Origin: Planctomycetales bacterium
Lineage (GTDB): Bacteria; 4484-113; JAFGCY01
Length of the DNA: 32,000 nt
Reading direction: 5' to 3'
Assembly: GCA_022646745.1 (NCBI GenBank)
Contig: CP060262.1
Location: forward strand, 1,440,001 to 1,472,000
A program made the position numbers and the translations under genes. The notes under the pieces were generated by a model. The model had not been told where the DNA came from and ran no database searches. It saw only the letters and a program-made list of their open reading frames with translations. This document shows, in pieces, positions 10,219-32,000 of the stretch. Each line of letters starts with the position of its first letter. The stretch's first letter is position 1.

Positions 10219-10295
10219 GCATAGATTCTACTGCAGCCCAGACTGGAATGCCAATCCAGACTTTGAGCACCCAGCAGCGCATACAATCCGCTGTG

Positions 10296-14400: not shown

Positions 14401-15092
14401 TCGCCCATGCGCTGTGGTGCAGCCGGTGAGGACTGGATCACCTGCTGGATGCGCTCCTGATCCAGCGGCACCGGCTCAGTTTCCACCGTCTGGCTGATGT
14501 CCAGGTAGAAGTCGTAGGTCACCTCGCGCACCAGGCCCTTGTTCTCGCTGAGCAGCTTCTGCATCAAGGCATCGAGCTGGCTGACATCCGCCAGGCCCGG
14601 CACCTCGTAAGCGGTGAAATTGACATCCCTGTAGAACACGCGGCCGAACTCACTGAGGCCGTAATGCTGGGCGAAGTTGTGACTGACGCGGCGGTAGAAG
14701 GGATGGTCCACCAGCGGGTGGTTGTCCGTCGCCCGCCTGAGGTCCGCCTGCGCCCCGCCGCCCATGTACTGCTGCTGCACCGCCGGGTCGGGCTGGTTCT
14801 CCCAGACGACCACGAGGCGGTTGGCGGCGAAGTCCTGTCCGGCCCGCGCCGTGCGCCGAGGCAGTTCCAGCTCGGCCTCCGGGTCGGCTGCATTGCGCAA
14901 TCCGGCGAGGTTGGCCGGCTCACCGGGCAGGGCCAGCATGCCGGGGTCATCCACGAGGCCGGTGCTGCCTGCATCGTTGCCGAACACCGGGGCACTGCCT
15001 GCATCCGGTTCAGCACTGAGCTGCTGCTGCGAGGCGCATGCGCCGATCAACAGCACAAACAGGATCATAGGAGTGAAGATGCTTCGTTTCAT
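11421..15092 (-). CDS. Large exported S8 subtilisin-family serine peptidase lipoprotein with C-terminal beta-sandwich domains and an IPT/TIG-like domain
   Basis: Catalytic triad motifs appear in D-H-S order: VVVAVVDTGVRYTHEDL, DHGHGTYCSGIVGAVGNNG, GTSFACPYVAGCAALLW, plus the oxyanion-Asn region VVVAAGNNNWG. There are two MAM or choice-of-anchor-J-like segments (SNDWLYAPVIDLTGFASASLEF...MWIDDVHI and LGWLYSPLIDLSATVRPRIRL...GWSLDDIEV). The C-terminal IPT/TIG-like segment is GYPGQTVVLSGDKFG...VYVTVLGHESN. The start is taken at ATG 15092 (MKRSIFTPMILFVLLIGACASQ, lipoprotein signal), not 15194. Confidence 0.9.
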   Translation of the reverse strand: MKRSIFTPMILFVLLIGACASQQQLSAEPDAGSAPVFGNDAGSTGLVDDPGMLALPGEPANLAGLRNAADPEAELELPRRTARAGQDFAANRLVVVWENQPDPAVQQQYMGGGAQADLRRATDNHPLVDHPFYRRVSHNFAQHYGLSEFGRVFYRDVNFTAYEVPGLADVSQLDALMQKLLSENKGLVREVTYDFYLDISQTVETEPVPLDQERIQQVIQSSPAAPQRMGELNRSTSAAPNDPMHLNLSGSDGGTWANWRIGAIDGQAWDSGVGSHDVVVAVVDTGVRYTHEDLADNAIEPAAEFPYNEPGILTDVINKDNDPFDDHGHGTYCSGIVGAVGNNGLGLAGANQQVSILPVKVLSGGGSGSETQVAEGMLLADYLGADIISMSLGGDFPDRIMQLAAKQCDSDGVLVVVAAGNNNWGGLFYPAYYPECLGVGATTLVNDSNDQDFSQVDGEIPTADRYDARANFSNYGSWVDIAAPGVQVRSTSNGSDTSYGASGAGTSFACPYVAGCAALLWAHMGPDSSNHEVRGMLQGSATVMDHVNNGANPRGFIDNDTNGTVRFVNVWEAIKLYDAGPYEAPVVSWASPLEGATVSGLTDLQLEITGGSGNILKVSFETPTRHLGTVIAESGGFWQLNWDSAFEFNGGQTITATVTDDVGHIISLPLHVSCDNAHIVPEWQEGFDGLADDTLPAGWSVLDGNAGTNNTIWGADNSDGGDATPSMHSSGSTANYAPNSNDWLYAPVIDLTGFASASLEFNYLHRMANDGGFLFITADDETYAGDGFFGGGNPDWDSYSFDLTPFCGAEVRIFWVIDCNGGNQAGGMWIDDVHITVPEGTPPTVSIDSPLAAASVDGIVDVQLTLSDDTVAVELIGLPVGAPPVLFDSIPDNDLENPTKTFTASWDSRQTGTGTVLLRARAYDDESDNGGLDDLAAEDSVVLSVVNPVAGPGWLEDFEDVVDLGGTDNGQPDGEWFRIGADPLRWRTGTQAPWRGLNHAYFGPDGGGDYGNDALGWLYSPLIDLSATVRPRIRLHHSLDVDASNGDRAVVYMVRYDGTEVLEANLFEQRNDSAGYQPLLFNLDGMSQQPFRLLFLFDSDGNSQAGNGWSLDDIEVLDADPFLLGLTQPRGYPGQTVVLSGDKFGVLQEDSFVSFRSEGGGSTLATVSAWSNTEISVIVPPDADSGDVYVTVLGHESNARHFSRLLDPTELTGIGQFSLSDGI

Positions 15093-15280
15093 TGCTTTTC
15101 CAGCCAGTCGGACAGGCATGCTTGCCTGCCCTTTACAATTCTTCCACAAATTACATGCTACTTCAAATTGAGATGAAACCGACCGCCGGTACACAATTAA
15201 TGATTGGTATGTGTCACCATAAAATCCGGTAAAATCAGGGTGTTTACCCGTATTCCACGCTGAAACCAGAGGAATTCCTC

Positions 15281-18103: not shown

Positions 18104-18197
18104 GCTGCAGACCGGACTGCGATGCAACTGCTTGTCCTGGTTTGTCCTGGGTTAGAATCTGTGCGGACGGAACCCGGTAAAGTGCGAGGACAAGCGC

Positions 18198-20291
18198 ATG
18201 TTCAGACAGCTCAGTGGCCTGCTGGCCGGAGCGATGCTGCTGCTGGCAGCCTGCTCCAGCGGAAGTGGCGGCCAGGTAAACCAGCCGACAGGCGACGCTG
18301 TCCTGCCGCAGCTTGAATCGCAGCTGCCGGCCATTTCTGCCCTGCCTGCCATGCAGCGCAGTACCAGCAATACGCCGGAAGCCTGCATCCGCACGGGAGC
18401 CGACATCTACAAGGTCTCGGCGAAGATGAATGCCGAGGTGACCGGTGACAAGCTCTCGATGAGCCCGACCTATGATCCGCAGGGCGACCCGCCGATGCAT
18501 GGACTGAGCTGGGGGATCTACGGTTTCAACATCGCAGACTACCAGCGCGGCACGGAGATCCAGGCAAAGTGGAATGGCACTGCGCCCGCCAGCTCCGGCA
18601 TCTACATCGGGGTCAGTGATTACTCCAGCGGACACTGGCAGTGGCGCCAGGGTACGGCGGACGGGACCGTGGACTTCCCGGGGCTGGCTGACTATTTCTC
18701 TGCCAACGGCGACCTGTATGTGGTGGTGCTGCTGGCAACGGAGGGCCAGTTCACCTTCGGCAGGCTGCGCCTCGGCGGCAACTTCCCGCCGGTGATTGAT
18801 TACACGATTGACAACGACAGCGCCCAGGGCAAGCTGACGGTCAACATCGATGCCTCCGCCAGCTACGATCCGGATGGCACTCTGACTTTCTTTGAATGGT
18901 CCGCCGAGGGTGGGCCGATCTTCGAGCCATCCGGTCCGTTCCTGTACTGGGAGTATGACCATGTCGGCGAGTACGACTGCATAGGCAGGGCGCATGACCT
19001 CGAAGGAGGGATGACTGAATTTGTCATCCCGATCAGCGTGACCCCCGTGCCTGGCAATGACCCGCCGGTGGCCGATATCTACTCTGAATCTGAAGTGGAA
19101 TCCGGCCTGGTGCCGCTTTCCGTCACGCTCAATGCACAGGACAGCACGGACCCGGAGAACGGTTTCATGACATTCCGCTGGGACATTGACGAGGACGGGT
19201 ACTTCGAGCAGTTCACCTTTGGCAGTCCGGTGTTCAAGGCTCTGTACATCGCAGCCGGCACCTACAACCCCAGCGTGATGGTGATTGATGAGTTCGGTGC
19301 CGTCGACACGGCCACGATGCAGATCGAGGTGCTGCCCGTGGAGGGCACGGAAGCTCCCGTTGCCAGACTGGAAGCCGTCTACTGGTATGACAACACTGCG
19401 GGAGAACGGTACTTCACCGCACAGGGATCCTACGACCCTGACAATGACATCGTGAAGTACGAATGGGACTTCGAGGGTGACGGCACGTTCGACGTTGATT
19501 CAGGGATCGATCCCGTGAATAACGTGACCTATTCCCAGGATGGCGGCGTGTTCAACGTCACTATGAGGGTCACTGACAGCGGCGGACGCAGTGACACGGC
19601 AACCTGCCCCGTAATGGTCACGCCATTCTCCGGCCAGCCGGAGCTCGAACCGAATGACAGCCCGGAGACGGCGATCAGCCTGGGCAGTTTTGGCAACGAG
19701 TGCGTGCGGGTGCGCGACTTTCCCGGCCAGCTCAAGTTCGCTGAGGATACAGAGGACTGGTATGTGGTCCATGCCGCACACAACGGCCAGCTGTGGTTCA
19801 ACCTGATCTTCACGCACAGTTTCATGGACATGGACATTGAGATGTACAGCCCTCTTGACCTGGTGAACCCGCTGTACTTCAGCTACTCGGATACCGACAA
19901 CGAGTTCATGTCCGTATTAATTACGGCACCGGGGGACTACTTCCTGCGGGTGTTCACCGACCAGGCAGGGGAGGCCGGGCAGGACAGCGGCTACAAGCTG
20001 GACTTCTGGGACCCCTCCAAGCCGGTGGCTTTCGTCACGGCCTCCGCAACGGTAGTGGAGACGGGGACCGAGGTTGTGCTCAACGCGGGCCGCAGCTATG
20101 ACCGTTACCTGGAGGGCCTGATCTACTTCTTTGACATGGATGGCGACGGGATCTTCGAGAGCGAGCCCGGCGGATGGCTCGGTACTGGCACCGTCAGCTG
20201 GGAAGGACCGCAGGAGCTCGGCGTCAAGGTACAGGACATGCTGGGAATGGAGTCAATCGCCACGGTGACAGTGACGGGCATCGCCCCCTGA
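18198..20291 (+). CDS. Paralog 2 of the lipoprotein family: N-domain, PKD x3, PPC, PKD (697 aa)
   Basis: Lipobox: MFRQLSGLLAGAMLLLAACSSGSGG. N-domain nt 18342-18779 (LSWGIYGFNI...YIGVSDYSSGHWQWRQG...RLRLGGN). PKD motif: DPDNDIVKYEWDFEGDGTFD. PPC: ELEPNDSPETAISL...TEDWYVVHA...GDYFLRVF. Confidence 0.9.
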   Translation: MFRQLSGLLAGAMLLLAACSSGSGGQVNQPTGDAVLPQLESQLPAISALPAMQRSTSNTPEACIRTGADIYKVSAKMNAEVTGDKLSMSPTYDPQGDPPMHGLSWGIYGFNIADYQRGTEIQAKWNGTAPASSGIYIGVSDYSSGHWQWRQGTADGTVDFPGLADYFSANGDLYVVVLLATEGQFTFGRLRLGGNFPPVIDYTIDNDSAQGKLTVNIDASASYDPDGTLTFFEWSAEGGPIFEPSGPFLYWEYDHVGEYDCIGRAHDLEGGMTEFVIPISVTPVPGNDPPVADIYSESEVESGLVPLSVTLNAQDSTDPENGFMTFRWDIDEDGYFEQFTFGSPVFKALYIAAGTYNPSVMVIDEFGAVDTATMQIEVLPVEGTEAPVARLEAVYWYDNTAGERYFTAQGSYDPDNDIVKYEWDFEGDGTFDVDSGIDPVNNVTYSQDGGVFNVTMRVTDSGGRSDTATCPVMVTPFSGQPELEPNDSPETAISLGSFGNECVRVRDFPGQLKFAEDTEDWYVVHAAHNGQLWFNLIFTHSFMDMDIEMYSPLDLVNPLYFSYSDTDNEFMSVLITAPGDYFLRVFTDQAGEAGQDSGYKLDFWDPSKPVAFVTASATVVETGTEVVLNAGRSYDRYLEGLIYFFDMDGDGIFESEPGGWLGTGTVSWEGPQELGVKVQDMLGMESIATVTVTGIAP

Positions 20292-20403
20292 ATGATCGCT
20301 GGCGGATTGCTTCCTGGGAAAGTCAATGATCGAGACTGATCGAGTAGAATTTTCCCAGCCTCCTGCACTGCCATAAGGAACCAGGCAGGTTCAAGGAATA
20401 AAG

Positions 20404-22518
20404 ATGAAAGCTCTTCTCGCCATCGCGTGCGCAGGCTGCCTGCTGCTCGCGGCTTCATGCAGCAGCCAGCCGGCTCAACCGGAGCAAGCGGCTGACCTGC
20501 CCGTTTCCGCGCAGGCTGAGGTTGTACAGCTCAGTCCCTCGCTGTCTGACGGGCTGCCGGGTCTGGACAGCCTGCCTCAGCAGCAGCGCAGCGCCAGCAA
20601 TGTCCCGGAGGACTTCCTGCGGGATGGATATCAGACTTATCAGCCTGATGCATTCGCCAATGCGAGCATTGTCGGGAACATGCTTGTGATGGTTGCGGAT
20701 TACGAGCCAGCGGCCGAGCCGCCGACACGTGAGCTGAGCTGGGCGATCTACGGTTTCAACATCACTGATTTCCAGCGCCAGCCGGAACTGCAGGTACTGT
20801 GGGAAGGCCCCAGGCCGGACGGAGCGCGCCACTACATCGGTGTCAGCGACTTCAGCAGCAATCGCTGGCAATGGTTCCAGGGCACGGATCAGGACATCAT
20901 TGATTTCGGTAGCCTTGACGGCTACTTCTCCGGGAATGGCGACATCTATTTCACCATCCTGGTCGCGGACAAGGGCAACTTCAATCTCAGCCGGCTGCGT
21001 CTGGGGGAGAACCTGCCGCCCGTGGCCAGCCTGATCCCGAACCAGACCAGTGGAACGGGCTCTCTGGAGGTCCAGTTCGACGCCTCGGGATGCCACGATC
21101 CGGACGGCAGCATTGCAGGCTACGAATGGTCAATGGAGGATCCGGACTACACGGATTTCCGGTACCCGGCCCCGGTGGTTTTCTGGACTTACGACCACGC
21201 GGGCGAGTACACCTGCACACTGCGCCTGACGGACAATGACGGAGCCACCGCCGAGCTCAGCATCCCGATTTCGGTCGCCCTGGTGGATGGCAACGCTGCG
21301 CCGCTTGCCTCGATCGTGCCTGACACCAGCGGAGGACCGGTCCCGCAGTGGATCAACTTCGACTGCAGCGGCAGCAGTGACACGGACGGCTCGATAGCCG
21401 GCTACCGTTTCGACTTCGACGGAGACGGGCATTTCGAGATTTTTGGCAGTGCCGTGCAGAAGTGGTTCTTCGCCGAACCGGGCAGCTATGAGATCTCCGT
21501 GATGGCGATTGACAACCAGGGCAGCTTCGGCACAGCCTCAACCACGGTGGTGATTGACCCGGTTGATGGTACTGAGCCGCCGACCATCGTCGTCAAGTCC
21601 GACTACAGCTTCAACTCACCGGGTGCCTTCAGGATAGACTGGAGCGAGAGCAGCGACCCCGACAATGACATCGTCTCGTTCGAGACGGACCTGGAGGGTG
21701 ATGGCATATTCGATTATTCTTTCGCCCCCGGTGAGGAATTCGTGGCGACCTATGCCCAGACAGGGCAGACTTTCAACGCGACATTCCGCGTGACGGACAG
21801 CGGCGGCCGGACAGACGTTGCCAGCATACCGCTGCGGATCGGGCCGAATTCCGGCCTGGCGGAAACTGAACCCAACGGTACCCCGGGCGAGGCCGAGGAG
21901 TTCACCGGCTTCATGAACTACTCCAAGGGGATCTGCAACTGGAAGGGCTCACTGGATGAGGGCGGCGGCGACAGCGCGGACTGGTACTCCTTCGAATCCG
22001 ACCGCAGCGGTCCAGTGGCGTTCGTCGCGGATTTCCTCCGCAGCGAGATAGACATGCGCCTGGACCTGTATTCCGCCGGCGACACCGACAACCCACTGGC
22101 CAGCTCCCACGGCATCGTGGACAAGGAAATCCTCAAGTTCGAGCTACCCGCCGCCGGCCATTACCTGATCCGTGTGAGCATAGATCCCTCAGCACTGGCG
22201 AAGGGCCCCGGTGACTACACATTCCGCTGCCGCAACTATGACGGCCCGCACGCCGCCCTGTCCGCTGATCCACTCTTTGGGTCGGTTCCATTTGACATTT
22301 CGCTGGATGCATCTGCCAGCACAGTTGAGATGGGCTACATCACTGAATACCAGTTTGATGTCGACGGTGACGGGATCTTTGAAGTGACCGGCCAGTTCCA
22401 GCCCACCTATGACACGCAGATCACAGTACCCGGTGCAATCGTCGTCAGCGTGCGCGTAATCGATGAGTGGGGCCTCGCGGATACAGACTTCGTCATAGTC
22501 ACTGCCTTGCCCATTTGA
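20404..22518 (+). CDS. Paralog 3 of the lipoprotein family: N-domain, PKD x3, PPC, PKD (704 aa)
   Basis: Lipobox: MKALLAIACAGCLLLAASCSSQP. N-domain nt 20572-21006 (LSWAIYGFNI...YIGVSDFSSNRWQWFQG...RLRLGEN). PPC: ETEPNGTPGEAEEF...SADWYSFES...GHYLIRVS. Confidence 0.9.
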   Translation: MKALLAIACAGCLLLAASCSSQPAQPEQAADLPVSAQAEVVQLSPSLSDGLPGLDSLPQQQRSASNVPEDFLRDGYQTYQPDAFANASIVGNMLVMVADYEPAAEPPTRELSWAIYGFNITDFQRQPELQVLWEGPRPDGARHYIGVSDFSSNRWQWFQGTDQDIIDFGSLDGYFSGNGDIYFTILVADKGNFNLSRLRLGENLPPVASLIPNQTSGTGSLEVQFDASGCHDPDGSIAGYEWSMEDPDYTDFRYPAPVVFWTYDHAGEYTCTLRLTDNDGATAELSIPISVALVDGNAAPLASIVPDTSGGPVPQWINFDCSGSSDTDGSIAGYRFDFDGDGHFEIFGSAVQKWFFAEPGSYEISVMAIDNQGSFGTASTTVVIDPVDGTEPPTIVVKSDYSFNSPGAFRIDWSESSDPDNDIVSFETDLEGDGIFDYSFAPGEEFVATYAQTGQTFNATFRVTDSGGRTDVASIPLRIGPNSGLAETEPNGTPGEAEEFTGFMNYSKGICNWKGSLDEGGGDSADWYSFESDRSGPVAFVADFLRSEIDMRLDLYSAGDTDNPLASSHGIVDKEILKFELPAAGHYLIRVSIDPSALAKGPGDYTFRCRNYDGPHAALSADPLFGSVPFDISLDASASTVEMGYITEYQFDVDGDGIFEVTGQFQPTYDTQITVPGAIVVSVRVIDEWGLADTDFVIVTALPI

Positions 22519-22640
22519 ACCATGCCAGGGGTAGCTGGGACCTGCTTGCCGCGAAGCTCAGTTTGGTGATTCTTTCAGCTAGAATTCTGTGCTGCCCCTC
22601 CAGCATGCTGGAGAGTATCCGGGCGCAGTGAGGAATAAAG

Positions 22641-24740
22641 ATGCGTGCTTCATTTGCCCTTCTGCTGGCAGGCTGCCTTTTCTGCCTGGCAGCCTGTTCA
22701 TCCGGCGCTGCCAACCTGCAGGAAAAGGCTGCCACGCCTGAGCGCCAGTCCGGTCCGGTTGAACTGCCGCAGGACCTGCTTGCCCAGCTTCCAGCCCCGG
22801 CCGAGCTGCCCGCCGTTGGGCGCAGCTTCAGTGATACACCGGCGGACTACATCCGCAAGGGTGCGGAGATCATCACGCCCGGCAGCCGCGAGAATGCGAT
22901 CGTGTTCGGGGACAGCCTGCTGATGGCCCCGGACTGGGACCCCGCCGCCAACCCGCCGAAGCTGGATGTGAGCTGGGGCATCTACGGTTACCACCTGCCG
23001 GGATTCGCAAGGGAGGCTCAGGTCGACCTGCAGTGGGGCGTGCGCCCGGACTCCGGCGAGTACTACGTCGGCATCACGGATTACGGCAGCGGCCGCTGGA
23101 AATGGCAGCTTGGCAATGACGATGACCACTTCGACTTCGGCTCGCTGGACGGCTATTTCTCGAACTTCGACGCGATCTACTGCTGCGTGTTGCTGACCGG
23201 CAGCGGCAGCTTCGAGCTGACCCGTGTGCGGCTCGGTGGCAACTTCGCCCCGACCGCCAGCTTCACCGTGGCCCAGGACAGCGGCCAGTACTTCTTCACC
23301 ACAGGGTTTGACGGCTCCGCCAGCTCCGACCTGGATGGCACGATCGCCGAGTACCACTGGTCATTCGAGGACCCAATCTACTTCACACCCGGTGACCTCG
23401 GGCCGACCCCCAGCCACGACTACGACCATGTCGGCACCTTCACCTGCACCCTGCGCGTGGTTGATAACGAAGGTGGCACCGGCGAAGCCACCGCCACGAT
23501 CAATGTGACCGGTGAACCGGGCAACCTGCCACCGATCGCGGACATCGTGGCCTTGCCGAACGGCGGTCCGCTGCCCCAGGCCATCAACTTTGACGCCTTC
23601 AACAGCATGGACCCGGATGGCGGCATCGTCAATTACCGCTGGGACCTTGACGACGACGGGTTCCATGAGCTGCAGACCCCGGTCCCCTTCGCCTACCGCG
23701 AATTCATCGAGGCTGGCACCTTCACCGTCGGGGTGATGGTGATCGATTTCTTCGGGGAAAGTGCCACGGCCACGACGGATGTCACGATCACTCCGATCAG
23801 CGGTGAGAACCCACCCACTGCTGAACTGAGCATCGACTACTACTGCCTGCAGAGCGGAATCATCCGTTACATCGACACGAGCGGCCTCGTGGACCCCGAC
23901 AATGACATCGTCAAGTACGAATGGGACTTCGAGGGTGACGGCACGTTTGACTATGACCTCGGCCTGAACCCCGGTGGTGACATCACCTACACGCTGCCCG
24001 GCGAATTCACGCCAACGGTGCGCATCACCGACAGTGGTGAGCGGGAGGCCACCGCCAGCCTGAAGGTGATCGTGTCAAACGGGGTGGACCCGCAGGAGAC
24101 TGAGCCCAACAATGCCGAGACGGAGGCGGACAGCCTCGGCGGTTTCCTCAACTACGCGAAGCATATCCGCGACTGGAGTGCTAGCGTCGGCGGCAGCGAC
24201 ACCGAGGACTGGTACGCGATCGATGCCGACCGGGCCACGACCGCCAGCTTCTGGGTGGACTTCAGTTCGGCGACGGTCGACCTTTCACTGGCTCTGTACC
24301 ATGAGTCAGACCTGGTCGTTCCGTTGATTGAATCGATTGACAACGTGGACCGTGAATACATCAACTTTGGCCTGCCGGCCGCCGGGCGCTACTACCTGAA
24401 GGTGTTCGTGCCCGGTTCCGCCATCGAGACCGGCCCGGGCAACTACAAGCTGACCTGCCTGGAGAACCATCCGCCCATCGCCGTGCTGACTGGATCACCG
24501 GACATTGGGTTTGCACCCTTGCTGGTAATGCTGGATGCCAGCCTGAGCTCGGACGATGAGGACGGGCTGTCGGTCATCTTTGACTATGACCTGGACGGTG
24601 ACGGCTTCTTCGAAACCACCTTTGAGAACAGCACGATCAATACGACCCTCGTCTCACCCGGGTCATACCCGCTTGCTGTGCGGGTAACGGATTCGCTCGG
24701 GGAAACTGACATCGCCTACAAGATAATCACCGTGAACTAG
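22641..24740 (+). CDS. Paralog 4 of the lipoprotein family: N-domain, PKD x3, PPC, PKD (699 aa)
   Basis: Lipobox: MRASFALLLAGCLFCLAACSSGAAN. N-domain nt 22806-23240 (VSWGIYGYHL...YVGITDYGSGRWKWQLG...RVRLGGN). PPC: ETEPNNAETEADSL...TEDWYAIDA...GRYYLKVF. Confidence 0.9.
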   Translation: MRASFALLLAGCLFCLAACSSGAANLQEKAATPERQSGPVELPQDLLAQLPAPAELPAVGRSFSDTPADYIRKGAEIITPGSRENAIVFGDSLLMAPDWDPAANPPKLDVSWGIYGYHLPGFAREAQVDLQWGVRPDSGEYYVGITDYGSGRWKWQLGNDDDHFDFGSLDGYFSNFDAIYCCVLLTGSGSFELTRVRLGGNFAPTASFTVAQDSGQYFFTTGFDGSASSDLDGTIAEYHWSFEDPIYFTPGDLGPTPSHDYDHVGTFTCTLRVVDNEGGTGEATATINVTGEPGNLPPIADIVALPNGGPLPQAINFDAFNSMDPDGGIVNYRWDLDDDGFHELQTPVPFAYREFIEAGTFTVGVMVIDFFGESATATTDVTITPISGENPPTAELSIDYYCLQSGIIRYIDTSGLVDPDNDIVKYEWDFEGDGTFDYDLGLNPGGDITYTLPGEFTPTVRITDSGEREATASLKVIVSNGVDPQETEPNNAETEADSLGGFLNYAKHIRDWSASVGGSDTEDWYAIDADRATTASFWVDFSSATVDLSLALYHESDLVVPLIESIDNVDREYINFGLPAAGRYYLKVFVPGSAIETGPGNYKLTCLENHPPIAVLTGSPDIGFAPLLVMLDASLSSDDEDGLSVIFDYDLDGDGFFETTFENSTINTTLVSPGSYPLAVRVTDSLGETDIAYKIITVN

Positions 24741-24793: not shown

Positions 24794-25192
24794 ATGAACA
24801 CCGTTGGACAGTACAACTGGGTGGCACTCTTCCTGCTGGGCGGGGCGGTGCTGATCGGGCTGGCATTCGCTTTCCTGAACCTGTGGCGTCCGCGGCGGCC
24901 GAACTTCCTCAAGCGCCTGAGCTATGAATCCGGCGCGCAGGCCACCGGTGACGCGCTGGTGCGCTTCAACATCCGCTTCTACATCCTCGCGATCGTGTTC
25001 CTCATGTTCGACGTGGACATCATGTTCATCTTTCCCTGGGCCACCGCCTTCCGGCTGCTGGTGTTCGGTAATGACGACATCACCTTCACGCCGATCGGGG
25101 CCGCCTCACTGGGTGAGATGTTCGTGTTCCTCGGCATCCTGCTCGTCGGCTGGGCCTATGCCTACCGCAAGGGAGCGCTGGAATGGGTCTGA
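24794..25192 (+). CDS. nuoA: NADH-quinone oxidoreductase subunit A homolog (ND3/NuoA family)
   Basis: Family hallmarks: SYESG, FNIRFYILAIVFLMFDVDIMFIFPWA, YRKGALEW. Three predicted TM segments. Overlaps the next gene by 10 nt. Confidence 0.9.
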   Translation: MNTVGQYNWVALFLLGGAVLIGLAFAFLNLWRPRRPNFLKRLSYESGAQATGDALVRFNIRFYILAIVFLMFDVDIMFIFPWATAFRLLVFGNDDITFTPIGAASLGEMFVFLGILLVGWAYAYRKGALEWV

Positions 25193-25635
25193 AGGACCTC
25201 ATCCGCGAGGCCAGTGCCCATTCCCTGTGGCCGCTGATGCTCGGACTGGACTATGCCACGCTGGAACTGTTCAGCGCGATCTCGCCGCGCTATGACATCG
25301 CGCGCTTCGGCTCTGAGGTGATGCGCCCCAGCCCGCGCCAGGTGGACCTTTTGATCGTGGCCGGCGTCGTCAACAACAAGATGGCCCCGGTGATCCGCCG
25401 GCTGCATGCCTCGATGGCCGACCCGGCCTTCGTGATGGCATTCGGCGCGGGGGCGATCAGCGGCGCGCCCTTCGACGGCAGCTATGCGGTGGACGGGGGA
25501 GTGGACCGCATCGTACCAGTGGACATCTATGTGCCGGGCGACCCGCCGCGGCCCGAGCAGCTGATCGATGGCATCATCGCCCTGCGCGAGCGCATCCTCT
25601 CGGGTGCGCTGGATGAGCGGTTTGCGTGGCGGTAG
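25183..25635 (+). CDS. nuoB: NuoB/PSST-family subunit lacking all four cysteine ligands of Fe-S cluster N2
   Basis: Family motifs are conserved: SLWP, RYDIARFGSEVMRPSPRQVDLLIVAG, NKMAPVIRRL, VPVDIYVPG-PPRPEQL. At the E. coli ligand columns, GLSCCYVE reads GLDYATLE (D23 Y24, nt 25249-25254), MGACA reads FGAGA (G90, nt 25450-25452) and PGCPP reads PGDPP (D120, nt 25540-25542). Confidence 0.9.
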   Translation: MGLKDLIREASAHSLWPLMLGLDYATLELFSAISPRYDIARFGSEVMRPSPRQVDLLIVAGVVNNKMAPVIRRLHASMADPAFVMAFGAGAISGAPFDGSYAVDGGVDRIVPVDIYVPGDPPRPEQLIDGIIALRERILSGALDERFAWR

Positions 25636-25654
25636 GATCGCATTACCATGAACC

Positions 25655-26452
25655 ATGAGTATCAAGGCCAGCTGCCCTTGTCAGGTCAGGGAATCACTCC
25701 CCTGGGATCCTGATCCTCCTGCAAGTGTCCGGGAGGAAACCCCATACTTCAAACTGCACAAGCTCATCATCCGCAGGGAAAGCTGGCAACGCGGAATCCT
25801 GCACATCTGCACCAGATGCAATGCCGACTGGTATCTCGATCATGCATCGGGATTTCTGCTCAGAATTCCGGCAGGCTGCCTGGATAAGGCCAGGTCCTGG
25901 GATGCCGGTATGGAGAAACCGGCGAAAGTGCTTGCGGAACTGCTGCTGAACATTGGCAGCGTTGGATTCGCGGCGTTTCAAAGGCGGATGAAGTGGCTGA
26001 TGTTCCCATGCTGTGTCAGGGATCATGCGGGCGTCTGGCATGAGAAGGCCTTTGTCATCCTGAGTGCCTCGATGCCCCTTCCCGAATGGCAAAAGGGAGA
26101 GTCTGCATTGTCGGATGCAGCGCATGTTGAGCAGTCAAGGTTTGCCCTGCCGCTGGATATCCGCAGGGAAAGCTACAATGCCATGGAGATTGCCATGGGC
26201 TTCAATCCGACTTCGATCCGGACGTCATCCGGCCGCTGTTTCAATCTCTGGCCAAACACGGACTTCATGGACAAGGACGGGATCATCGGATCTGAATGCA
26301 GCCTGGCAACAGATGTCGATCCGTTTCGCCTCAAGCTGCTTACAAGCAGCGAGCTGGGGCCGCGACCATGGCGGCGCAATGTCCGGAGGGTTGACTACCC
26401 GACTTTCCATGGAGAGCTGACGGAGGATTTTGAGGATCTTCTGTATTCATAG
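25655..26452 (+). CDS. Hypothetical protein with an N-terminal CxC...CxxC motif (265 aa), inserted inside the nuo operon
   Basis: Starts 19 nt after the nuoB stop. Cys7, Cys9, Cys52 and Cys55 (SCPC...ICTRCNADWY) could form a zinc-ribbon-like site. GC is lower (53% in the 25741-25800 sample). It uses AGG/AGA Arg codons and many A/T-ending codons, unlike flanking genes. I recognise no family. Confidence 0.5.
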   Translation: MSIKASCPCQVRESLPWDPDPPASVREETPYFKLHKLIIRRESWQRGILHICTRCNADWYLDHASGFLLRIPAGCLDKARSWDAGMEKPAKVLAELLLNIGSVGFAAFQRRMKWLMFPCCVRDHAGVWHEKAFVILSASMPLPEWQKGESALSDAAHVEQSRFALPLDIRRESYNAMEIAMGFNPTSIRTSSGRCFNLWPNTDFMDKDGIIGSECSLATDVDPFRLKLLTSSELGPRPWRRNVRRVDYPTFHGELTEDFEDLLYS

Positions 26453-26807
26453 ACTGGCTCGTCTCGGATTTCCCAGTGAATCAGTCAACCTGAAGAACAA
26501 GGGTCAGGGATACCGGAAGAACCGGCGCGGCCCAGCCGCGATTGGGAGGGGATGCAGCGAAGTCAGGGAAATGCGGGGACTGGAGCTGATCAGAAAACTC
26601 TGTGCGCTCGGTGGCTCTGTGTTGACAATTCTCCAGTTTGACTGGGCTGAGGCTAGCCTGCACTTGGTTGGCAATGCGGCTGGGGCGGAGCGATATTGGT
26701 GAACGCAGAGCCGCAGAGTCTGGCAATGAGTGTCGTCGGGCTCATTGCTTGCTCCGCATTGCTCATTGCAGAGGGGCTTTCCGCGTGGCTGCGCGCACGC
26801 GGCGGAG

Positions 26808-26853
26808 TGTGGCTCTTGAGAGCCACAGGGCCCTGTTGGTCTGCAGACCAACA
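26808..26853. repeat. Two adjacent perfect hairpins or palindromes in a non-coding stretch
   Basis: tgtggctc-ttga-gagccaca (26808-26827) has an 8-bp stem and 4-nt loop. tgttggtctgcagaccaaca (26834-26853) is a 20-nt perfect palindrome. Both lie 90-135 nt downstream of the stop of the minus-strand gene ending at 26944. No T-tract on either strand. Confidence 0.6.
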
Positions 26854-26943
26854 CACCATCACTCATTGCCTCGCGGCATGCTATCCCAGGCTCAGAGGGA
26901 CTGCGCCACAACTTCCAACAACCGGTCTCTGGAATCCTTGCAG

Positions 26944-27309
26944 CTACTTCTTCTTCGTCGGCTTGGCCGGCAGTGATGAGACGTAGTCGTAGGACTTCCG
27001 GAACCAGCTGCGCAGTGTGCGTGTGTTACCAAACAGTGCAGGCGGCACGGTGACATACTCCCGCTGGACATATCCGGGGATAGAGTGGTAGAGCCGGGTA
27101 CCGTACTTCTCGAGGAAGGCCTCACGCTCATCCTTCGCCAGCCGCAGGCCGATCTCGTTGAACTTCGAGATGCTGGAGTACATATTGCCGTTCAGTGAAG
27201 TGTAGGGAGCCGCCGCCCCCCTGGCCTCGACCCCCTCCACGCCCTCGATCATCTTCATGTAGGCCGCGAGCACTGCCGGGTCCACATCCGCAAATTTGTT
27301 CTTCGCCAT
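26944..27309 (-). CDS. Small hypothetical protein (121 aa from MAKNKF), possibly TfoX-N/YjbR-like
   Basis: Likely start is the ATG at the complement of 27307-27309 (MAKNKFADVDPAVLAAYMKMIEG...). The lysine-rich tail is LPAKPTKKK. Its resemblance to small TfoX-N-like proteins is from memory only. It lies opposite to the nuo genes it interrupts. Confidence 0.55.
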   Translation of the reverse strand: MAKNKFADVDPAVLAAYMKMIEGVEGVEARGAAAPYTSLNGNMYSSISKFNEIGLRLAKDEREAFLEKYGTRLYHSIPGYVQREYVTVPPALFGNTRTLRSWFRKSYDYVSSLPAKPTKKK

Positions 27310-27492
27310 GCCTGCCTCCGGGCTGATTCTAGCTTTTGCTGCAGGGCCTTGGAACAGCATTGGAAGCTGCCCCATCGGCTAGAATTACAGGAACCTTCTG
27401 CATTTGATATGTATAAGGTAACGCTGTGGGGCTTTTGATCGTTTATATCTGTATGCCGATTGCCGTAATCCAGCCAGGATGGGGAGGACTTG

Positions 27493-28074
27493 GTGCTCCC
27501 TGATGAGCTTGCCGGTCAGATCCGCGAGGACTGCGGTGATGTGCTGCTGCTGGACCCCGCCCGCGGCTGGGCGATCCTGACGGACAGCGGCCAGCTGCAG
27601 CTGGTCTGCCGCCAGCTGAAGAACATCGGCTTCATCCGTGCGCTTAACATGACCGCCAACCACCTCGGCGGGCCGGACTTCCACCTCTACCTGACGCTCA
27701 GGCACGGCAGGCGGCATGATGTCAGTCTCACACTGAAATGGAAATTCACCCTGCTGGAGGGCAATGCCCCGGCAGCGGACAGGGGTGGGGAGGATACTGA
27801 AGCAGCGCCGGCCTATGCCGGGCAGAGCGTGCACCCCAGCCTGAGCCTGATCTGGCGGGCGACGGAGCTGATGGAGCGCGAGATCTTCGAGTTCTTCGGC
27901 ATCCCCTTCGCTGGCAACCCGAACCTCATCGGGCTGATCCTCGACCCGCAGCTGCAGGGCTTCCCGCTCAGGCGGGAATTCCGGGCTGCCTCACATGAGA
28001 ACTACGCAGAGAACGTGCTGAAGCAGCGCGCCGACGCGGCAATGCGGGAGGTGCTTGATGACGCGCAGCTCTGA
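27493..28074 (+). CDS. nuoC: NuoC/30-kDa-family subunit homolog
   Basis: Conserved C-terminal core: WRATELMEREIFEFFGIPFAGNPNLIGLIL...GFPLRREF (canonical W..A.W.ERE..D.FGI.F.GHP.L.R.L...HPLRKD). GGGGAGGA (27481-27488) precedes TTG 27490 and GTG 27493. The exact start is uncertain. Confidence 0.8.
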   Translation: MLPDELAGQIREDCGDVLLLDPARGWAILTDSGQLQLVCRQLKNIGFIRALNMTANHLGGPDFHLYLTLRHGRRHDVSLTLKWKFTLLEGNAPAADRGGEDTEAAPAYAGQSVHPSLSLIWRATELMEREIFEFFGIPFAGNPNLIGLILDPQLQGFPLRREFRAASHENYAENVLKQRADAAMREVLDDAQL

Positions 28075-29209
28075 TCGCCGTGTTGAGATCCGCCGCGACC
28101 CGCTGCTGACGGAGAAGCTGGTCTACTCCGTCGGTCCGCAGCACCCAAGCCTGCCGAGCCCGCTGGAGCTGCGGGTACAGGCGGACGGCGAGCTGATCGA
28201 GCGCATCACGCCGGAGGTCGGCTTCATGCATCGCGGCGTGGAGCAGCTGGTGACCCAGCGCAACTACGCCCAGGCGGCTGGGCTGTTGTCCCGCTGCGAA
28301 TGGCTGGCTGGCAGCAACGCCGACTGGCTGGTGGCGGATGCCATCGAGCGCATCGAGGGGATCACTATCCCGGCCCGCGCGCAGTGGCTGCGCACCCTTG
28401 TGCTGGAGCTGAGCCGGATCGGCAACCACCTGTTCTGGTTTGGCAACCTCGGTCTCGAGGCCGGCGCTTATACCCCGATCTTCATCTCGCTGCGCGAGCG
28501 CGAGATGCTGCTCGACCTGCTGGAGATGCTCAGCGGGCACCGCCACCACCATGGCTGGATCGTGCCTGGCGGCGTGCGCACTGCCCCGCCGGAGGACTTC
28601 AGCGGCCATGTGCGGGCATTTTGCCTGTGGTTCCAGGGCCGGCTGGATGAATACGAGGACTTCTTCTCTGACAACGCAATCTGGATCAACCGCAGCGAGC
28701 TGATCGGCACGCTCGAGCCCGAGTTTGCCTTCGAGCATGGCGCCACCGGGCCGGTGCTGCGTGGCAGCGGGATCGCGCATGACCTGCGCCGCGACCAGCC
28801 CTATGCGATGTACGGCGAGCTGGACCTGCATGTGCCGACCGGAGAGTATGGCGATGTGCTGGACCGCTACCGCGTGCGCTTCGTCGAGATGCGCGAGAGC
28901 CTGCGCATCATCGAGCACTGCCTGGCTTACATTGACAACGGCGAGCTGCGCAATGCGGAAGTCAACCCGGACTTCGCGCAGATGGCGGTCTCGCGCGGCG
29001 AGGTCTACACGGCGGTCGAGAGCCCGCGCGGCGAGCTCGGCCTGACGCTCGTCAGCGACGGCACGAACCGCCCAAACCGCATGCACCTGCGTGCGCCGAG
29101 CCTGTACCACCTGTTCCTGCTGGACGAGCTGTGCCGCGGTTACCTGCTGGCGGACCTGTTCGTGATCTACGGCAGCCTCGACATCATGATCGGGGAGGTC
29201 GACAAGTGA
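28058..29209 (+). CDS. nuoD: NuoD/49-kDa-family subunit lacking the quinone-binding His and Tyr, with no NiFe Cys motifs
   Basis: Family motifs: VGPQHPS, GFMHRGVEQL, LELSRIGNHL, YGDVLDRYRVRFVEMRESLRII, ESPRGELG, LRAPSLYHL, GSLDIMIGEVDK. Against Thermus Nqo4, GPQHPSTHGV reads GPQHPSLPSP (P33 at the His38 column, nt 28154-28156) and RMDY reads RCEW (W82 at the Tyr87 column, nt 28301-28303). It overlaps nuoC by 17 nt. Confidence 0.88.
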   Translation: MTRSSDRRVEIRRDPLLTEKLVYSVGPQHPSLPSPLELRVQADGELIERITPEVGFMHRGVEQLVTQRNYAQAAGLLSRCEWLAGSNADWLVADAIERIEGITIPARAQWLRTLVLELSRIGNHLFWFGNLGLEAGAYTPIFISLREREMLLDLLEMLSGHRHHHGWIVPGGVRTAPPEDFSGHVRAFCLWFQGRLDEYEDFFSDNAIWINRSELIGTLEPEFAFEHGATGPVLRGSGIAHDLRRDQPYAMYGELDLHVPTGEYGDVLDRYRVRFVEMRESLRIIEHCLAYIDNGELRNAEVNPDFAQMAVSRGEVYTAVESPRGELGLTLVSDGTNRPNRMHLRAPSLYHLFLLDELCRGYLLADLFVIYGSLDIMIGEVDK

Positions 29210-30984
29210 TGCTCCCGATGCTGGCAATCCTGCAGCAGCGCTACGACATGGACGAGGCCCGCACCGTCTGGGAGGCGATGCGCGCCTGGCTCAATACCGA
29301 GCCGCTGCCCGGCCTGCGCTTCAGCCCGGAGGTTGCCAACGGCATCATGCTGGTGACGGCGCTCCTGCTGATCTTCCTCCTGGAGCTGATGATCACCATC
29401 GGCCTGCAGGTCTGGGAGCGCCGCCTGATGGCACGCATGCAGGGCCGCCGCGGCCCGCAGGAGTACGGCGAGGTCACCCCGCAGCGCTTCCGGCGGATCT
29501 TCATGCAGATCGGCGTGCTGATCGGCCTGCCCGCGCTGCTGTACGGCATCAACTACTGGACCGGCGGCACCGCCGGCTGGCAACAGTTCGGTGGCTGGAT
29601 CATCCTGTTCTTCGCCGTGGGCATGATGGGGCTGATCAACCGGCTGATGATCCTGCCGGCGCTCGGCCGGATGCAGGCCGCGCAGACCTCCGTCTGGCGC
29701 TTTCTGGCAACGCTGCTCTCGCTTTTGGCCTGGCCATCCCTCGCAGCCTGCGGCGGCATGCTCGTCGCTCTCCTGCTGGGCTTCATCCCGAAGGCGCACA
29801 TCCCCTTCCTGCCGCAGCTCACCGTACTGTGCACCGTGGTCGCCTTCGTGCTCTACATGAGCTACATGTTGCGCTACTACTGGCGCCAGGGCTTCTACGA
29901 CACGATCAAGATCTTCTTCAAGGAAGACACCGTCCCGCTCAGCGCTGACAAGCTCTTGTACCTGATCGCGCCGATCCTCGTCTACCTGCCGGCGCTGCTG
30001 AGCTGGGTGGTGATCCCGTTTGGCGTGGCGGCGGTCGACGGGCAGATCATCTACTACATGATCCAGGACCTGAACGTCGGCCTGCTTCTGATCATCGCCG
30101 ACTTCGCGATGTTCCTCGTGGCCGTGATCATGTCCGGCTACGCCTCCAACAACAAATATGCACTGGTCGGCGCAATGCGCGAGGCCGCCATGCTGCTGAC
30201 CTACGAGATCCCGATGCTGATGAGCCTCCTGTGCGTTGCCATCTTCGCCGGTTCGCTGAACCTGACGGAGATCGTGCAGCGCCAGACGATGACCTGGGGC
30301 ATCCTGCCGCTGTTCCCGGCCTTCATCATCTACTTCGTCGTCAGCCTGGCTGAGACCAACCGCCCGCCGTTTGACCTGCCGGAAGCGCAGAACGAGCTTT
30401 TGGGAGGTTACCTCGTGGAGTACAGCGGGATGCGCTTCGCGCTGTTCTACGTCGCCGAGTATTCGAACGTGTTCATCGTCAGCGCGATCATGACCGTCTG
30501 CTTCTTCGGCGGCTGGAAGGGCCCGATGTTCCTCGGCCCCGACGGGCTGTGGCTGACGAGCCTGTTCTGGTTCCTGCTGAAGACCTATGCCGTGTGCTTC
30601 TTCTTCATCTGGGCGCGTTCCACGATGCCGCGCATCCGCGTGGACCAGATCATGTTCTTCTCCTGGAAGTTCCTGCTGCCGGCCAGCGTGGTCGTGATGG
30701 CGGCCACGGCGCTCGGCGTCGTCAACCGCCATCCCTGGTTCAGCGCGAACCAGATCGCAGTGTCAGACGTTGACGTGACCGCTCTGCAGCGCGTCACCCA
30801 GTTCCAGACATTGACAACGGCCGAGGCACTGGCGGTGATGACAGTCCCCGAGAAGGCCTTCTTCTGGGGCTACAACGTGCTGTGCCTGTTCTTCGGACTG
30901 TTCATCCTGATGATGGCCTGGCGCATCCTGTTCGTGGCGCGCCGCCATCCGCAGCCCCGCCGGGAGGTGAGCTGGACCGGATGA
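29209..30984 (+). CDS. nuoH: Expanded NuoH/ND1-family membrane subunit (591 aa against about 325-350 typical)
   Basis: The core is conserved: ERRLMARMQGRRGPQ, IKIFFKEDTVPLSADKLLYLIAP, SGYASNNKYALVGAMREAAMLLTYEI, AETNRPPFDLPEAQNELLGGYLVEYSGMRFALFYVAEYSNV, MPRIRVDQIMFFSWKFLLP. The start ATG at 29209 shares its A with the nuoD stop (TGATG). There is an extra ~43-aa N-terminus, a ~140-aa hydrophobic insertion (aa 85-227, nt 29461-29889) and a ~80-aa C-terminal extension with one more TM helix. Confidence 0.88.
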   Translation: MLPMLAILQQRYDMDEARTVWEAMRAWLNTEPLPGLRFSPEVANGIMLVTALLLIFLLELMITIGLQVWERRLMARMQGRRGPQEYGEVTPQRFRRIFMQIGVLIGLPALLYGINYWTGGTAGWQQFGGWIILFFAVGMMGLINRLMILPALGRMQAAQTSVWRFLATLLSLLAWPSLAACGGMLVALLLGFIPKAHIPFLPQLTVLCTVVAFVLYMSYMLRYYWRQGFYDTIKIFFKEDTVPLSADKLLYLIAPILVYLPALLSWVVIPFGVAAVDGQIIYYMIQDLNVGLLLIIADFAMFLVAVIMSGYASNNKYALVGAMREAAMLLTYEIPMLMSLLCVAIFAGSLNLTEIVQRQTMTWGILPLFPAFIIYFVVSLAETNRPPFDLPEAQNELLGGYLVEYSGMRFALFYVAEYSNVFIVSAIMTVCFFGGWKGPMFLGPDGLWLTSLFWFLLKTYAVCFFFIWARSTMPRIRVDQIMFFSWKFLLPASVVVMAATALGVVNRHPWFSANQIAVSDVDVTALQRVTQFQTLTTAEALAVMTVPEKAFFWGYNVLCLFFGLFILMMAWRILFVARRHPQPRREVSWTG

Positions 30985-31451
30985 GGATGCTGTCAACGAG
31001 CCAGAACCTGCTGCACATCCTCGGTGAGCTGCTGCTCGTGGCCGCCGGGGCCTGGGGCCTGTACCTGCGCATCGTGCTCGGCATCGCGCCGGTGCTGACG
31101 ACGCAGTGGTTCGGTCCGCTGGCCCTGCTGGCGATCGGCCTGCTGCTGGCCGTGCTGCCGCTCACCCCGGCCCGCAATGCGGCCTGGATCAACCCCTGGT
31201 TCAGGCAGCGTCCGGGAGTCGCTTCACTGCTGTGGAGCTTCGCGGCCTGCGGCTGCCTGTATTCGCTGTGGCTGCAGTACGAGCTGCAGTTCACACTCAG
31301 GCCAGTGCTGCTCTTGGCGCCAGGCTTCCTTTACTGGTTCGTGGTGACGGCGCCGGGGCACCATGCCCAGCTGCGCAACATTGCCGCAGCCGGGGCGCAG
31401 GAGGCAGTTGCCAGCGAAGGACAGTCGGTGGAGGAGGTGCAGCGTGCCTGA
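30981..31451 (+). CDS. Hypothetical polytopic membrane protein (156 aa) at the position normally held by nuoI
   Basis: ATGA overlap with the nuoH stop (30981-30984). About four hydrophobic helices (LLHILGELLLVAAGAWGLYLRIVLGIAPVL, GPLALLAIGLLLAVLPL, SLLWSFAACGCLYSLWL, VLLLAPGFLYWFVVTAP). No CxxCxxCxxxCP ferredoxin motifs. GC3 is high. Confidence 0.65.
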   Translation: MRMLSTSQNLLHILGELLLVAAGAWGLYLRIVLGIAPVLTTQWFGPLALLAIGLLLAVLPLTPARNAAWINPWFRQRPGVASLLWSFAACGCLYSLWLQYELQFTLRPVLLLAPGFLYWFVVTAPGHHAQLRNIAAAGAQEAVASEGQSVEEVQRA

Positions 31452-32000
31452 CGGGCATGACCTGACAATCCACCATCCGCTGCCGAAGCGCTGGTTCGGC
31501 TACACCGCGATGGACTGGTTCAAGTTCTACGGCTTCATCGCCGTGTCCTGGTTCACGCTGGTGTTCGTCTACACGAAGTACGGCGCACTGTTTGATGACT
31601 ATGCCTCCAAGCAGCCCACCGAGCAGTACTCGCTGATGTGGTTCACCGCCAGCGGCCTGCTGCTGGCCCTGCCTGCGATCCTCGGCTTCTTCTGGTGGGC
31701 CTCCGGCGCGCTTGTGAAGTACAGCCGCTGGATGCTGCGCGACTTCACACTCTGGCGCCTGCTGCTGTTCGTGATCATCCTGTTCTTCTTCATCGTCGAG
31801 TTTGACCCGCTGGACCGGATCCACCCGAAGATGAGCGTGAAGGGCATCGCCGACACGCCGAACCTGACGCTGCTGCTGAGCGGCGAGGGCTTCGCGATCT
31901 GGCGCGAGACCGGCAGCCTCCCGGTGTTCAAGTTCCAGCTCGGCTATTTCCTGCTCTGGGCGCTGTTCTGGTTCCTGGTGTTCGTGCTCAACCTGAGTTA
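31444..32000 (+). CDS. Hypothetical polytopic membrane protein (partial, continues beyond the window)
   Basis: Absent from the ORF track because it has no in-window stop. I translated the frame from GTG 31444 to the edge and found no stop: VPDGHDLTIHHPLPKRWFGYTAMDWFKFYGFIAVSWFTLVFVYTKY...LWRLLLFVIILFFFIVEF...FLLWALFWFLVFVLNLS. It overlaps the previous gene by 8 nt. An alternative start is ATG 31510. It has no obvious resemblance to NuoI, NuoJ, NuoK or the NuoL N-terminus. Confidence 0.6.
   Translation, partial: MPDGHDLTIHHPLPKRWFGYTAMDWFKFYGFIAVSWFTLVFVYTKYGALFDDYASKQPTEQYSLMWFTASGLLLALPAILGFFWWASGALVKYSRWMLRDFTLWRLLLFVIILFFFIVEFDPLDRIHPKMSVKGIADTPNLTLLLSGEGFAIWRETGSLPVFKFQLGYFLLWALFWFLVFVLNLS

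Follow-up and report, generated by a model that had tools for sequence, protein, structure and literature searches.

A cysteine-free NuoB homolog in an 11-gene complex I derivative predicted to lack redox cofactors

The window analysed in this study is a stretch of 32,000 nucleotides from a Planctomycetales bacterium (GenBank assembly GCA_022646745.1, contig CP060262.1, positions 1,440,001 to 1,472,000 of the forward strand). It contains the first part of a nuo operon whose second gene, here called nuoB*, encodes a homolog of NuoB in which the four cysteine ligands of the iron-sulfur (Fe-S) cluster N2 are replaced. When the operon was compared with those of related species and with canonical complex I, the encoded assembly was shown to be, on sequence grounds, a predicted cofactor-free derivative of complex I that is under selection and appears to have kept its coupling core and two of its pump modules intact.

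The membership of NuoB* in the NuoB family was clear from several searches. The protein matched Pfam PF01058 (Oxidored_q6) with an E-value of 1.8e-19 and the NuoB subfamily models of NCBIfam with E-values of 5e-48 (NF005012) and 2.4e-45 (TIGR01957), both matches exceeding the curated cut-offs. With phmmer, 43 solved NuoB/PSST/NdhK chains were matched, the top one being Thermus thermophilus Nqo6 (5.9e-38). The homology extends over the whole domain and the gene lies where a nuoB is expected, between nuoA and nuoC/nuoD, its start overlapping the nuoA stop by 10 nt, but the four cysteines that ligate N2 are missing. The cysteine count is zero over all 150 amino acids. NCBI names this exact protein 'NADH-quinone oxidoreductase subunit NuoB'.

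phmmer and MAFFT agreed on one gap-free register over all three ligand motifs of NuoB. In this register, the canonical tandem-cysteine motif GLACCAIE corresponds to GLDYATLE, the second motif GACASSG to GAGAISG and the third motif PGCPPRPE to PGDPPRPE. The N2 ligands C45, C46, C111 and C140 (Thermus numbering) are therefore aligned with Y24, A25, G90 and D120, respectively, and the alanine before the canonical pair is D23 (A44D). A sequence-only reading of the window had already claimed that all four ligands are substituted, had assigned the GACA and PGCPP cysteines to G90 and D120, and had quoted flanking motifs as conserved; all of this was borne out by the alignments. Its placement of the tandem pair on D23-Y24 was one residue off, as the true match is Y24-A25, and the conclusion is unaffected by the correction. 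When the ligand columns were inspected in the profile and sequence alignments, the check proposed in that reading, no cysteine was restored. Alternative registers were also considered and rejected, because in a protein without any cysteine a shift of register cannot restore an N2 ligand. These results support the view that binding of cluster N2 by NuoB* would be impossible.

Cysteine was found at all four N2 columns in 71 of 71 canonical NuoB sequences from the fetched loci. Among the best 150 representatives of 50 % identity clusters (1.84 billion proteins), 147 had the four cysteines, one was truncated and two were cysteine-less. A larger search (5.8 billion proteins) recovered a NuoB* family, hereafter the main family, of about 47 clusters at 90 % identity. 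Its members share 61-97 % identity with the query, and every one of them has the joint pattern D-Y-x / G(N) / D, the co-occurrence that the sequence-only reading had suggested looking for. The edge of the family is sharp: the next matches (at most 59 % identity to NuoB*) all have four cysteines. Two more members surfaced later, beyond the 47 or so clusters. Over 47 family sequences, D23 and D120 are invariant together with 32 further columns, and Y24 and G90 are at least 90 % conserved, the G90 column being otherwise N or S. The identical NuoB* protein is present on more than 20 contigs from independent samples, one of them 4.11 Mb long. Among 185,579 GTDB species representatives, a cysteine-less NuoB was found in at least two of the best 80 loci, belonging to the metagenome-assembled genome UBP7 HKST-UBA01 and to a metagenome-assembled genome from Zodletone. 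The former, which matched at 100 %, is the host itself, a bacterium of the candidate phylum UBP7. It comes from the Shatin saline activated-sludge series, in which the sludge was fed with about 30 % seawater.

Two unusual NuoB sequences were observed during these searches. P0044 (154 aa, on a 503-bp ENA contig), which is 61 % identical to NuoB*, keeps GLACCAIE with its two tandem cysteines, but the remaining two ligand columns hold G and D. It may represent a genuine intermediate or a chimera created during assembly. P0179 (533 aa) contains a repeated, cysteine-containing C-terminal half of NuoB with identical flanking repeats on a repetitive contig, and looks like an artefact of assembly or gene calling.

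Selection was analysed gene by gene between the window strain and one second strain (L001/L010). There were seven synonymous and no nonsynonymous changes in nuoB*, and six and none, respectively, in nuoA. For nuoH, 65.5 synonymous and 8.5 nonsynonymous changes gave a ratio of nonsynonymous to synonymous rates (dN/dS) of 0.038, and for nuoC 22.5 and 5.5 changes gave 0.071. The relaxed selection that would mark a pseudogene was thus not seen in nuoB*, and pseudogene status was ruled out by selection and conservation taken together. On these comparisons, NuoB* is a conserved family, evidently under purifying selection and not in decay.

The loss of cofactor ligands extends to the subunit in the nuoI slot. 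Direct annotation revealed no recognisable nuoI in the operon, and the slot is occupied by a gene called Y here. The Y family comprises 40 clusters, every one annotated as 'hypothetical' and without a Pfam domain. Y has a new N-terminal domain of about four transmembrane (TM) helices followed by a cysteine-free ferredoxin-like domain. No match to Y was found among PDB sequences by phmmer, P0121 had no match in NCBIfam, and one Y ortholog gave weak NCBIfam NuoI matches at the corresponding position; the NuoI identity of Y was revealed solely by profile-profile and fold comparison. By hhalign, residues 195-318 of Y were aligned with residues 10-140 of canonical NuoI with a probability of 94.4 % and an E-value of 8.5e-8. 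When the AlphaFold2 (AF2) model of Y (predicted local distance difference test, pLDDT, 83) was searched with Foldseek, the top 21 PDB matches were all subunit I chains (NuoI/TYKY/NdhI/HycF). The N-terminal signature of NuoI is kept (LTGFRET…PVT..YP….LP..FRG.P.L), and the two CxxCxxCxxxCP motifs are replaced, the first by IAADGSGAI and the second by GRYDHDPALGEL. The query Y has no cysteine, and Y proteins of the main family have none of the eight cluster cysteines and no conserved cysteine. Judging from profile and predicted fold, Y is a NuoI homolog that would carry neither cluster N6a nor cluster N6b.

The quinone site of NuoD* is altered as well. Ligand columns were judged against 64 canonical NuoD sequences, in which they are invariant in 63-64. 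None of the quinone head-group ligands (T. thermophilus His38, Tyr87 and Asp139) is kept in NuoD*: position H38 is P, A or T in the main family and I in L174, D86-Y87 is E-W and D139 is E. The whole beta1-beta2 loop T37-H38-G39-V40 has become L-(P/A/T)-(S/A)-P, and the basic residues R42, K68 and R174 (Thermus) are lost. The replacements W82, E81, E134 and the SRCEW motif are themselves invariant. Residues 78-85 read SRCEWLAG in five of six main-family species and SRCEWLGG in L174; the conserved cysteine of this motif adjoins the tryptophan that stands for the quinone-binding tyrosine. About 19 residues matching Thermus Nqo4 318-336 are missing from NuoD*.

Taken together, the alignments indicate that the ligands of N2, N6a and N6b and those of the quinone head group are all gone from the assembly. 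No nuoE, nuoF or nuoG was found in or beside the operon in eight loci. NuoN is also absent from the operon, which encodes only L and one M-type antiporter-like subunit instead of three. The earlier statement that a NuoB without N2 is incapable of canonical complex I chemistry can therefore be upheld and widened, as the loss reaches the NuoI homolog, NuoD, nuoEFG and nuoN.

The gene order nuoA-B*-C-D*-H*-X-Y-J-K-L-M was the same in seven species (the query species, L009/L172, L011, L170/L173, L171, L174 and the contig carrying P0028). All 11 open reading frames (ORFs) were intact in the seven, with mean identities of 41-80 %. In five loci the operon was seen to stop after one M-type gene, and the flanking genes are unrelated among species. 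Mean ortholog identity among six species was 80 % for A, 74 % for K, 69 % for H, 67 % for B*, 67 % for D*, 58 % for M and 53 % for L; the most conserved subunits are thus the junction subunits (A, K, H, B* and D*), with L and M lower. NuoC is recognisable in its C-terminal half only and is on average 52 % identical among orthologs. The best sequence matches of each subunit are complex I proteins and not hydrogenases.

The membrane core was assessed by taking the columns with at least 90 % conservation among canonical sequences and scoring them in the variant family. NuoH* keeps 59 of 66 such columns, including the whole TM5-6 loop and the charged residues, NuoA 13 of 15, NuoK 14 of 15 (both glutamates included) and NuoJ 9 of 12, and the E-channel and coupling residues of these four subunits are in place, among them the carboxylates of NuoA, NuoJ and NuoK. 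The cysteine in the TM1-2 loop of NuoA/ND3 (YECG) is the active/deactive marker of mitochondrial complex I; at this position (residue 46) serine was found in five of five variant-family members compared. The M-like subunit had NuoM/ND4 as its top match (2.6e-72) and the L-like subunit (719 aa) NdhF/NuoL (3e-40). Alignments indicated that L* and M* retain the TM5 glutamate, the TM7 lysine, the TM8 histidine or lysine and the TM12 Lys-Asp or Glu motifs. A weak alignment was also obtained between the C terminus of L* and the C-terminal anchor of NdhF.

The conservation around the lost ligands had been taken, in the sequence-only reading, to argue for a retained structural function. Retention under constraint is confirmed by the invariant columns and the seven synonymous against no nonsynonymous changes in nuoB*. 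The word 'structural' alone is probably too modest, and a more than structural role is likely, because NuoH, A, J and K as well as the two antiporter-like subunits keep their catalytic residues, as expected if the machine still translocates ions.

Several parts have been added to this core. NuoH* contains an insertion of 60-140 aa (residues ~88-226) with extra TM segments between TM1 and the 'GLLQP' helix. The insertion site is the quinone-entry region of canonical complex I, and the insertion varies in length among species. At its ends, NuoH* is longer by about 45 conserved N-terminal residues and by one more TM segment at the C terminus, and N-terminal extensions are carried by NuoK and NuoJ. 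The small protein X, encoded between nuoH* and Y in six species, has conserved W/G/P-L-P motifs; no family match was found for it in Pfam or NCBIfam.

The other cysteine-less NuoB among the cluster representatives, P0181, belongs to a second lineage. It is a singleton cluster located at 10001-10477 of locus L175 (ERZ27262642 k141_265788), and its motifs are GLSEDALE / GSGAISG / PGSPPRP, with no cysteine in the protein. The L175 operon has ten genes (nuoA-B-C-D-H-Y'-J-K-L-M), without X and EFG and with two antiporter-like subunits. In its NuoD, H38 is W and Y87 is I. Y' is homologous to Y (E-value 5.6e-13) and has exactly four cysteines, one in the final Cys-Pro of ferredoxin motif 1 and three at the first cysteine positions of motif 2. 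These four form the ligand set for one [4Fe-4S] cluster, which we take to be N6b in Thermus nomenclature. NuoA, J, K and M of L175 are nearer to the main family than to any of 46-84 comparators; L175 was therefore placed as a sister or early branch. From its sequences, L175 looks like an intermediate in cofactor loss. A DtxR-type Fe-dependent repressor and MgtC are encoded 1-3 kb upstream of the L175 operon.

We give about an even chance to the reading that this 11-gene complex I derivative would translocate ions independently of redox chemistry and be driven by a gradient, the simplest form being an Mrp-like cation(Na+)/H+ antiporter. With no electron input, wire or acceptor site, the assembly could only use or dissipate ion gradients. 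It would still form an L-shaped complex, in which the cofactor-free arm (B*, C, D* and Y) may serve as a structural cap or gate over what used to be the quinone cavity. The net charge of a [4Fe-4S]2+ core together with its four thiolates is -2, and D23 and D120 might occupy the site of the [4Fe-4S](Cys)4 cluster and match its -2 charge. These two residues would face NuoD R84, NuoD H169 and the arginine of NuoB SPRQ; the basic residues around N2 (NuoD R84 and H169/H170, and this arginine) are kept in the main family. In each lineage, exactly two carboxylates lie where N2 used to be, namely A44D and C140D in the main family and C45E and C46D in L175. Because L175 likewise places two there, at other positions, we infer that the carboxylates may be a structural and electrostatic stand-in for the N2 cluster. 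A new ion path could be formed by the added helices, those of X, of the Y N-terminal domain and of the NuoH insertion at the site where quinone once entered.

The antiporter reading leans on the deactive form of mammalian complex I as its only experimental precedent, which acts as a Na+/H+ antiporter independent of redox turnover (Roberts and Hirst 2012, PMC3464577). The saline habitat of the host (about 30 % seawater) lends it slight weight. Several observations, however, count against it. Family members stem from many metagenomes, which weakens the habitat argument, and nothing in the sequences points to a particular transported ion. The highly conserved four-subunit peripheral arm is not obviously needed by a simple antiporter, and Mrp has none. 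The Mrp-specific small subunits MrpB/E/F/G were not detected by Pfam among X and the other small ORFs. Finally, the AF2 monomer of NuoB* was confident in the core and had pLDDT below 50 for residues 14-47, within which D23 and Y24 lie. More tentatively, at a little under even confidence, the family may represent a hitherto unrecognised class of machines derived from complex I, with a fixed or ion-titratable carboxylate network at the old N2/quinone site in place of the redox trigger. The E-channel, NuoL and NuoM of such machines would run as a redox-free pump, an antiporter or a transducer driven by the proton-motive force. A new membrane module (X, the Y N-terminal domain and the NuoH insertion) would then lie over the former quinone entrance, and L175, having lost N2 and one of the two NuoI clusters, would be a living intermediate of stepwise loss.

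Alternatively, the assembly might be a transducer and not a transporter, with proton flow through the pump modules driving a conformational change in the remodelled cavity or arm for non-redox work or sensing. It could, for example, act on a ligand in the old quinone tunnel, drive the new membrane module or report membrane energisation. This idea would fit the conservation of the junction subunits A, H, K, B* and D* above that of L and M, the replacements in the old quinone site (W82, E81, E134 and SRCEW), which are invariant and not random, the gathering of new TM segments at the quinone entry, and the retention of the peripheral arm at high cost. However, the new parts show no recognisable catalytic or ligand-binding motif and no partner gene is conserved beside the operon. 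The only known precedent in the superfamily comes from NDH-1 variants that hydrate CO2, and the present system lacks their Cup subunits. We consider a transducer rather unlikely. It is quite improbable that the assembly is still a redox enzyme, passing electrons to a substrate in the modified pocket of NuoD by way of non-cysteine-ligated or non-Fe-S cofactors or of partners encoded at other loci. Single Asp or His ligands to [4Fe-4S] clusters do occur in other proteins, L175 retains the complete four-cysteine set for one NuoI cluster, and the cysteine of SRCEW is conserved in NuoD*. Four non-cysteine ligands at once, as a cysteine-free NuoB* would demand with glycine in one ligand column, are nevertheless unprecedented. 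Main-family Y proteins have no conserved cysteine, none of the operons has an electron-input module within it or nearby, and H38, Y87 and D139 of NuoD are all substituted.

An iron-sparing or regulatory role, in which the cofactor-free subunits would replace the Fe-S ones in a canonical complex I encoded at another locus, for example under iron limitation, and so keep the membrane arm assembled or inactivate the enzyme, appears highly improbable. The exchange of Fe-S for iron-free proteins is a known strategy, and the iron-dependent repressor upstream of the L175 operon points the same way. On the other hand, the operon supplies not the Fe-S subunits alone but a full membrane set with co-adapted extensions (the H insertion, the K/J extensions, X and Y), and with its two antiporter-like subunits it would not be interchangeable with the canonical enzyme. 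A decaying remnant or pseudo-operon heading for loss is hardly credible, even though every catalytic ligand is gone and a lower-GC insert interrupts the operon in the window species. Decay was rejected because the replacement residues are invariant and nuoB* shows no nonsynonymous change. The 11 intact ORFs at 41-80 % mean identity in seven species, the sum of 0 nonsynonymous against 13 synonymous changes in nuoA and nuoB*, the dN/dS of 0.04-0.07 in nuoH and nuoC, and the occurrence of the same sequence on more than 20 contigs from independent samples all speak against it as well.

The closest known systems are, by sequence, the 11-subunit complex I-like enzymes (Nuo11/NDH-1 of cyanobacteria and chloroplasts, the Fpo type and the Campylobacterota type). 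They share the gene order nuoA-B-C-D-H-(I)-J-K-L-M, the absence of NuoEFG and the conserved E-channel and antiporter-like residues. All known ones, however, keep N2 in NuoB, N6a/N6b in NuoI and three antiporter-like subunits, and most keep NuoD Tyr87. The present system appears to have no clusters and no quinone ligands. Its antiporter-like subunits are L and M only, its NuoI is joined to a membrane domain, and X and the NuoH insertion are additional. Its membrane-core features are thus those of the group and the defining redox features are missing.

With Mrp, the system shares NuoL/MrpA-like, NuoM/MrpD-like and NuoK/MrpC-like subunits (PDB Mrp chains were matched at 1e-21 to 1e-28), and the conserved Lys/Glu residues of MrpA/MrpD-like subunits are present in L* and M*. 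A gradient-driven, redox-independent mode would be shared by hypothesis only. Both L* and M* resemble complex I subunits more closely than they do MrpA or MrpD. Mrp has no homologs of NuoH, NuoA, NuoB, NuoC, NuoD or NuoI and no peripheral arm, whereas the present system has them; identity with Mrp was rejected on this ground and for the lack of MrpB/E/F/G. Deactive mammalian complex I (PMC3464577) is similar in that the ion-transfer domain works apart from the redox domain. That state is reversible and fully loaded with cofactors, whereas the disconnection here would be permanent, being laid down in the genes, and the activity is hypothetical.

According to two papers (PMC6349859, PMC4758237), Ehr has lost the NiFe ligands from a hydrogenase-like large subunit and is still regarded as redox-coupled. 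As described there, it belongs to the same superfamily and resembles the present system in the loss of the ancestral catalytic metal site of a NuoD-like subunit; unlike Ehr, the present system branches within true complex I and appears to have lost the Fe-S clusters themselves. NuoB* matched hydrogenase MbhJ at 2.8e-23, against 5.9e-38 for Nqo6, and NuoD* matched MbhL at 4.8e-44, against 5.6e-83 for a complex I chain. As NuoD* also has no CxxC pairs and hydrogenase chains score far below complex I, identity with Ehr or group 4 [NiFe] hydrogenases was rejected. NuoD without H38/Y87/D139 has been described in Sulfolobus, Nautiliales and Desulfurobacteriales, with no Fe-S cluster loss reported (Degli Esposti 2015, PMC4758237). 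These variants share the natural loss of quinone ligands with NuoD*, the comparison being with the description in that paper and for NuoD only. The literature searched yielded no report of a cysteine-less NuoB or of a complex I homolog that is free of Fe-S clusters.

In complex I, the central open question is by what means the chemistry of quinone and the pumping of protons some 200 Å away are coupled. The family would be a natural experiment on it, in which redox cofactors and quinone ligands have been deleted while the coupling loop, the E-channel and two pump modules stay under strong selection. It could separate junction residues needed for ion transfer from those for redox chemistry, and could show how side chains can replace a [4Fe-4S] site without loss of the fold. 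It may also inform the question of how Mrp and complex I are related in evolution, as the transition is here run in reverse. In public databases the proteins carry the ordinary labels 'NADH-quinone oxidoreductase subunit B/D', so metabolic reconstructions of UBP7-type bacteria would wrongly assign them a respiratory complex I.

In the window, nuoAB* is separated from nuoCDH by a lineage-specific insert (Table 1) with a guanine-cytosine content of 0.54-0.60, against 0.64-0.68 in the nuo genes. nuoC-D directly follows nuoB* in L009/L172, L170/L173 and L175, and L171 and L174 have their own, different small insertions in the nuoA-nuoC region. At the insert spot, the sister strain (L001 12176-14262) has an extra PAS-HisKA-HATPase-REC hybrid kinase and a 91-aa gene. 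When the insert was scanned for promoters and terminators, the sites were no more numerous than expected by chance.

Table 1 Features of the nuo operon and its insert in the window (positions of the 32,000-nucleotide stretch)
Feature	Position	Strand	Description
nuoA homolog	24794..25192	+	132 aa, first operon gene; PF00507 9.8e-28
nuoB*	25183..25635	+	150 aa, cysteine-free NuoB/PSST homolog; matches to PF01058, NCBIfam NuoB and Nqo6
codons D23-Y24-A25	25249..25257	+	Y24 and A25 at the tandem Cys45/Cys46 sites, D23 at the preceding Ala (alignments)
codon G90	25450..25452	+	at the site of N2 ligand Cys111
codon D120	25540..25542	+	at the site of N2 ligand Cys140; PGCPP to PGDPP
insert splitting the operon	25655..27489	.	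lineage-specific, lower GC, outside the conserved system
insert ORF	25910-26452	+	within the insert; no known family
TfoX_N-like gene	26944-27375	-	within the insert
nuoC homolog	27490..28074	+	~193 aa; PF00329 9.1e-16 over residues 112-168
nuoD*	28058..29209	+	383 aa; PF00346 2.5e-80
nuoH*	29209..30984	+	591 aa; PF00146 8.3e-97; core intact
X	30981..31451	+	156 aa, small membrane protein specific to the system
Y	31444..32000	+	331 aa, window stops at residue 185; NuoI-derived by hhalign and Foldseek

The nuo operon is immediately preceded (15281-24740) by a tandem array of four paralogous genes for lipoproteins of ~700-940 aa with PKD and pre-peptidase C-terminal (PPC) domains. Farther upstream, a 1257-aa subtilase (11421-15194, minus strand) and an ankyrin-repeat protein (7879-10218, minus strand) are encoded.

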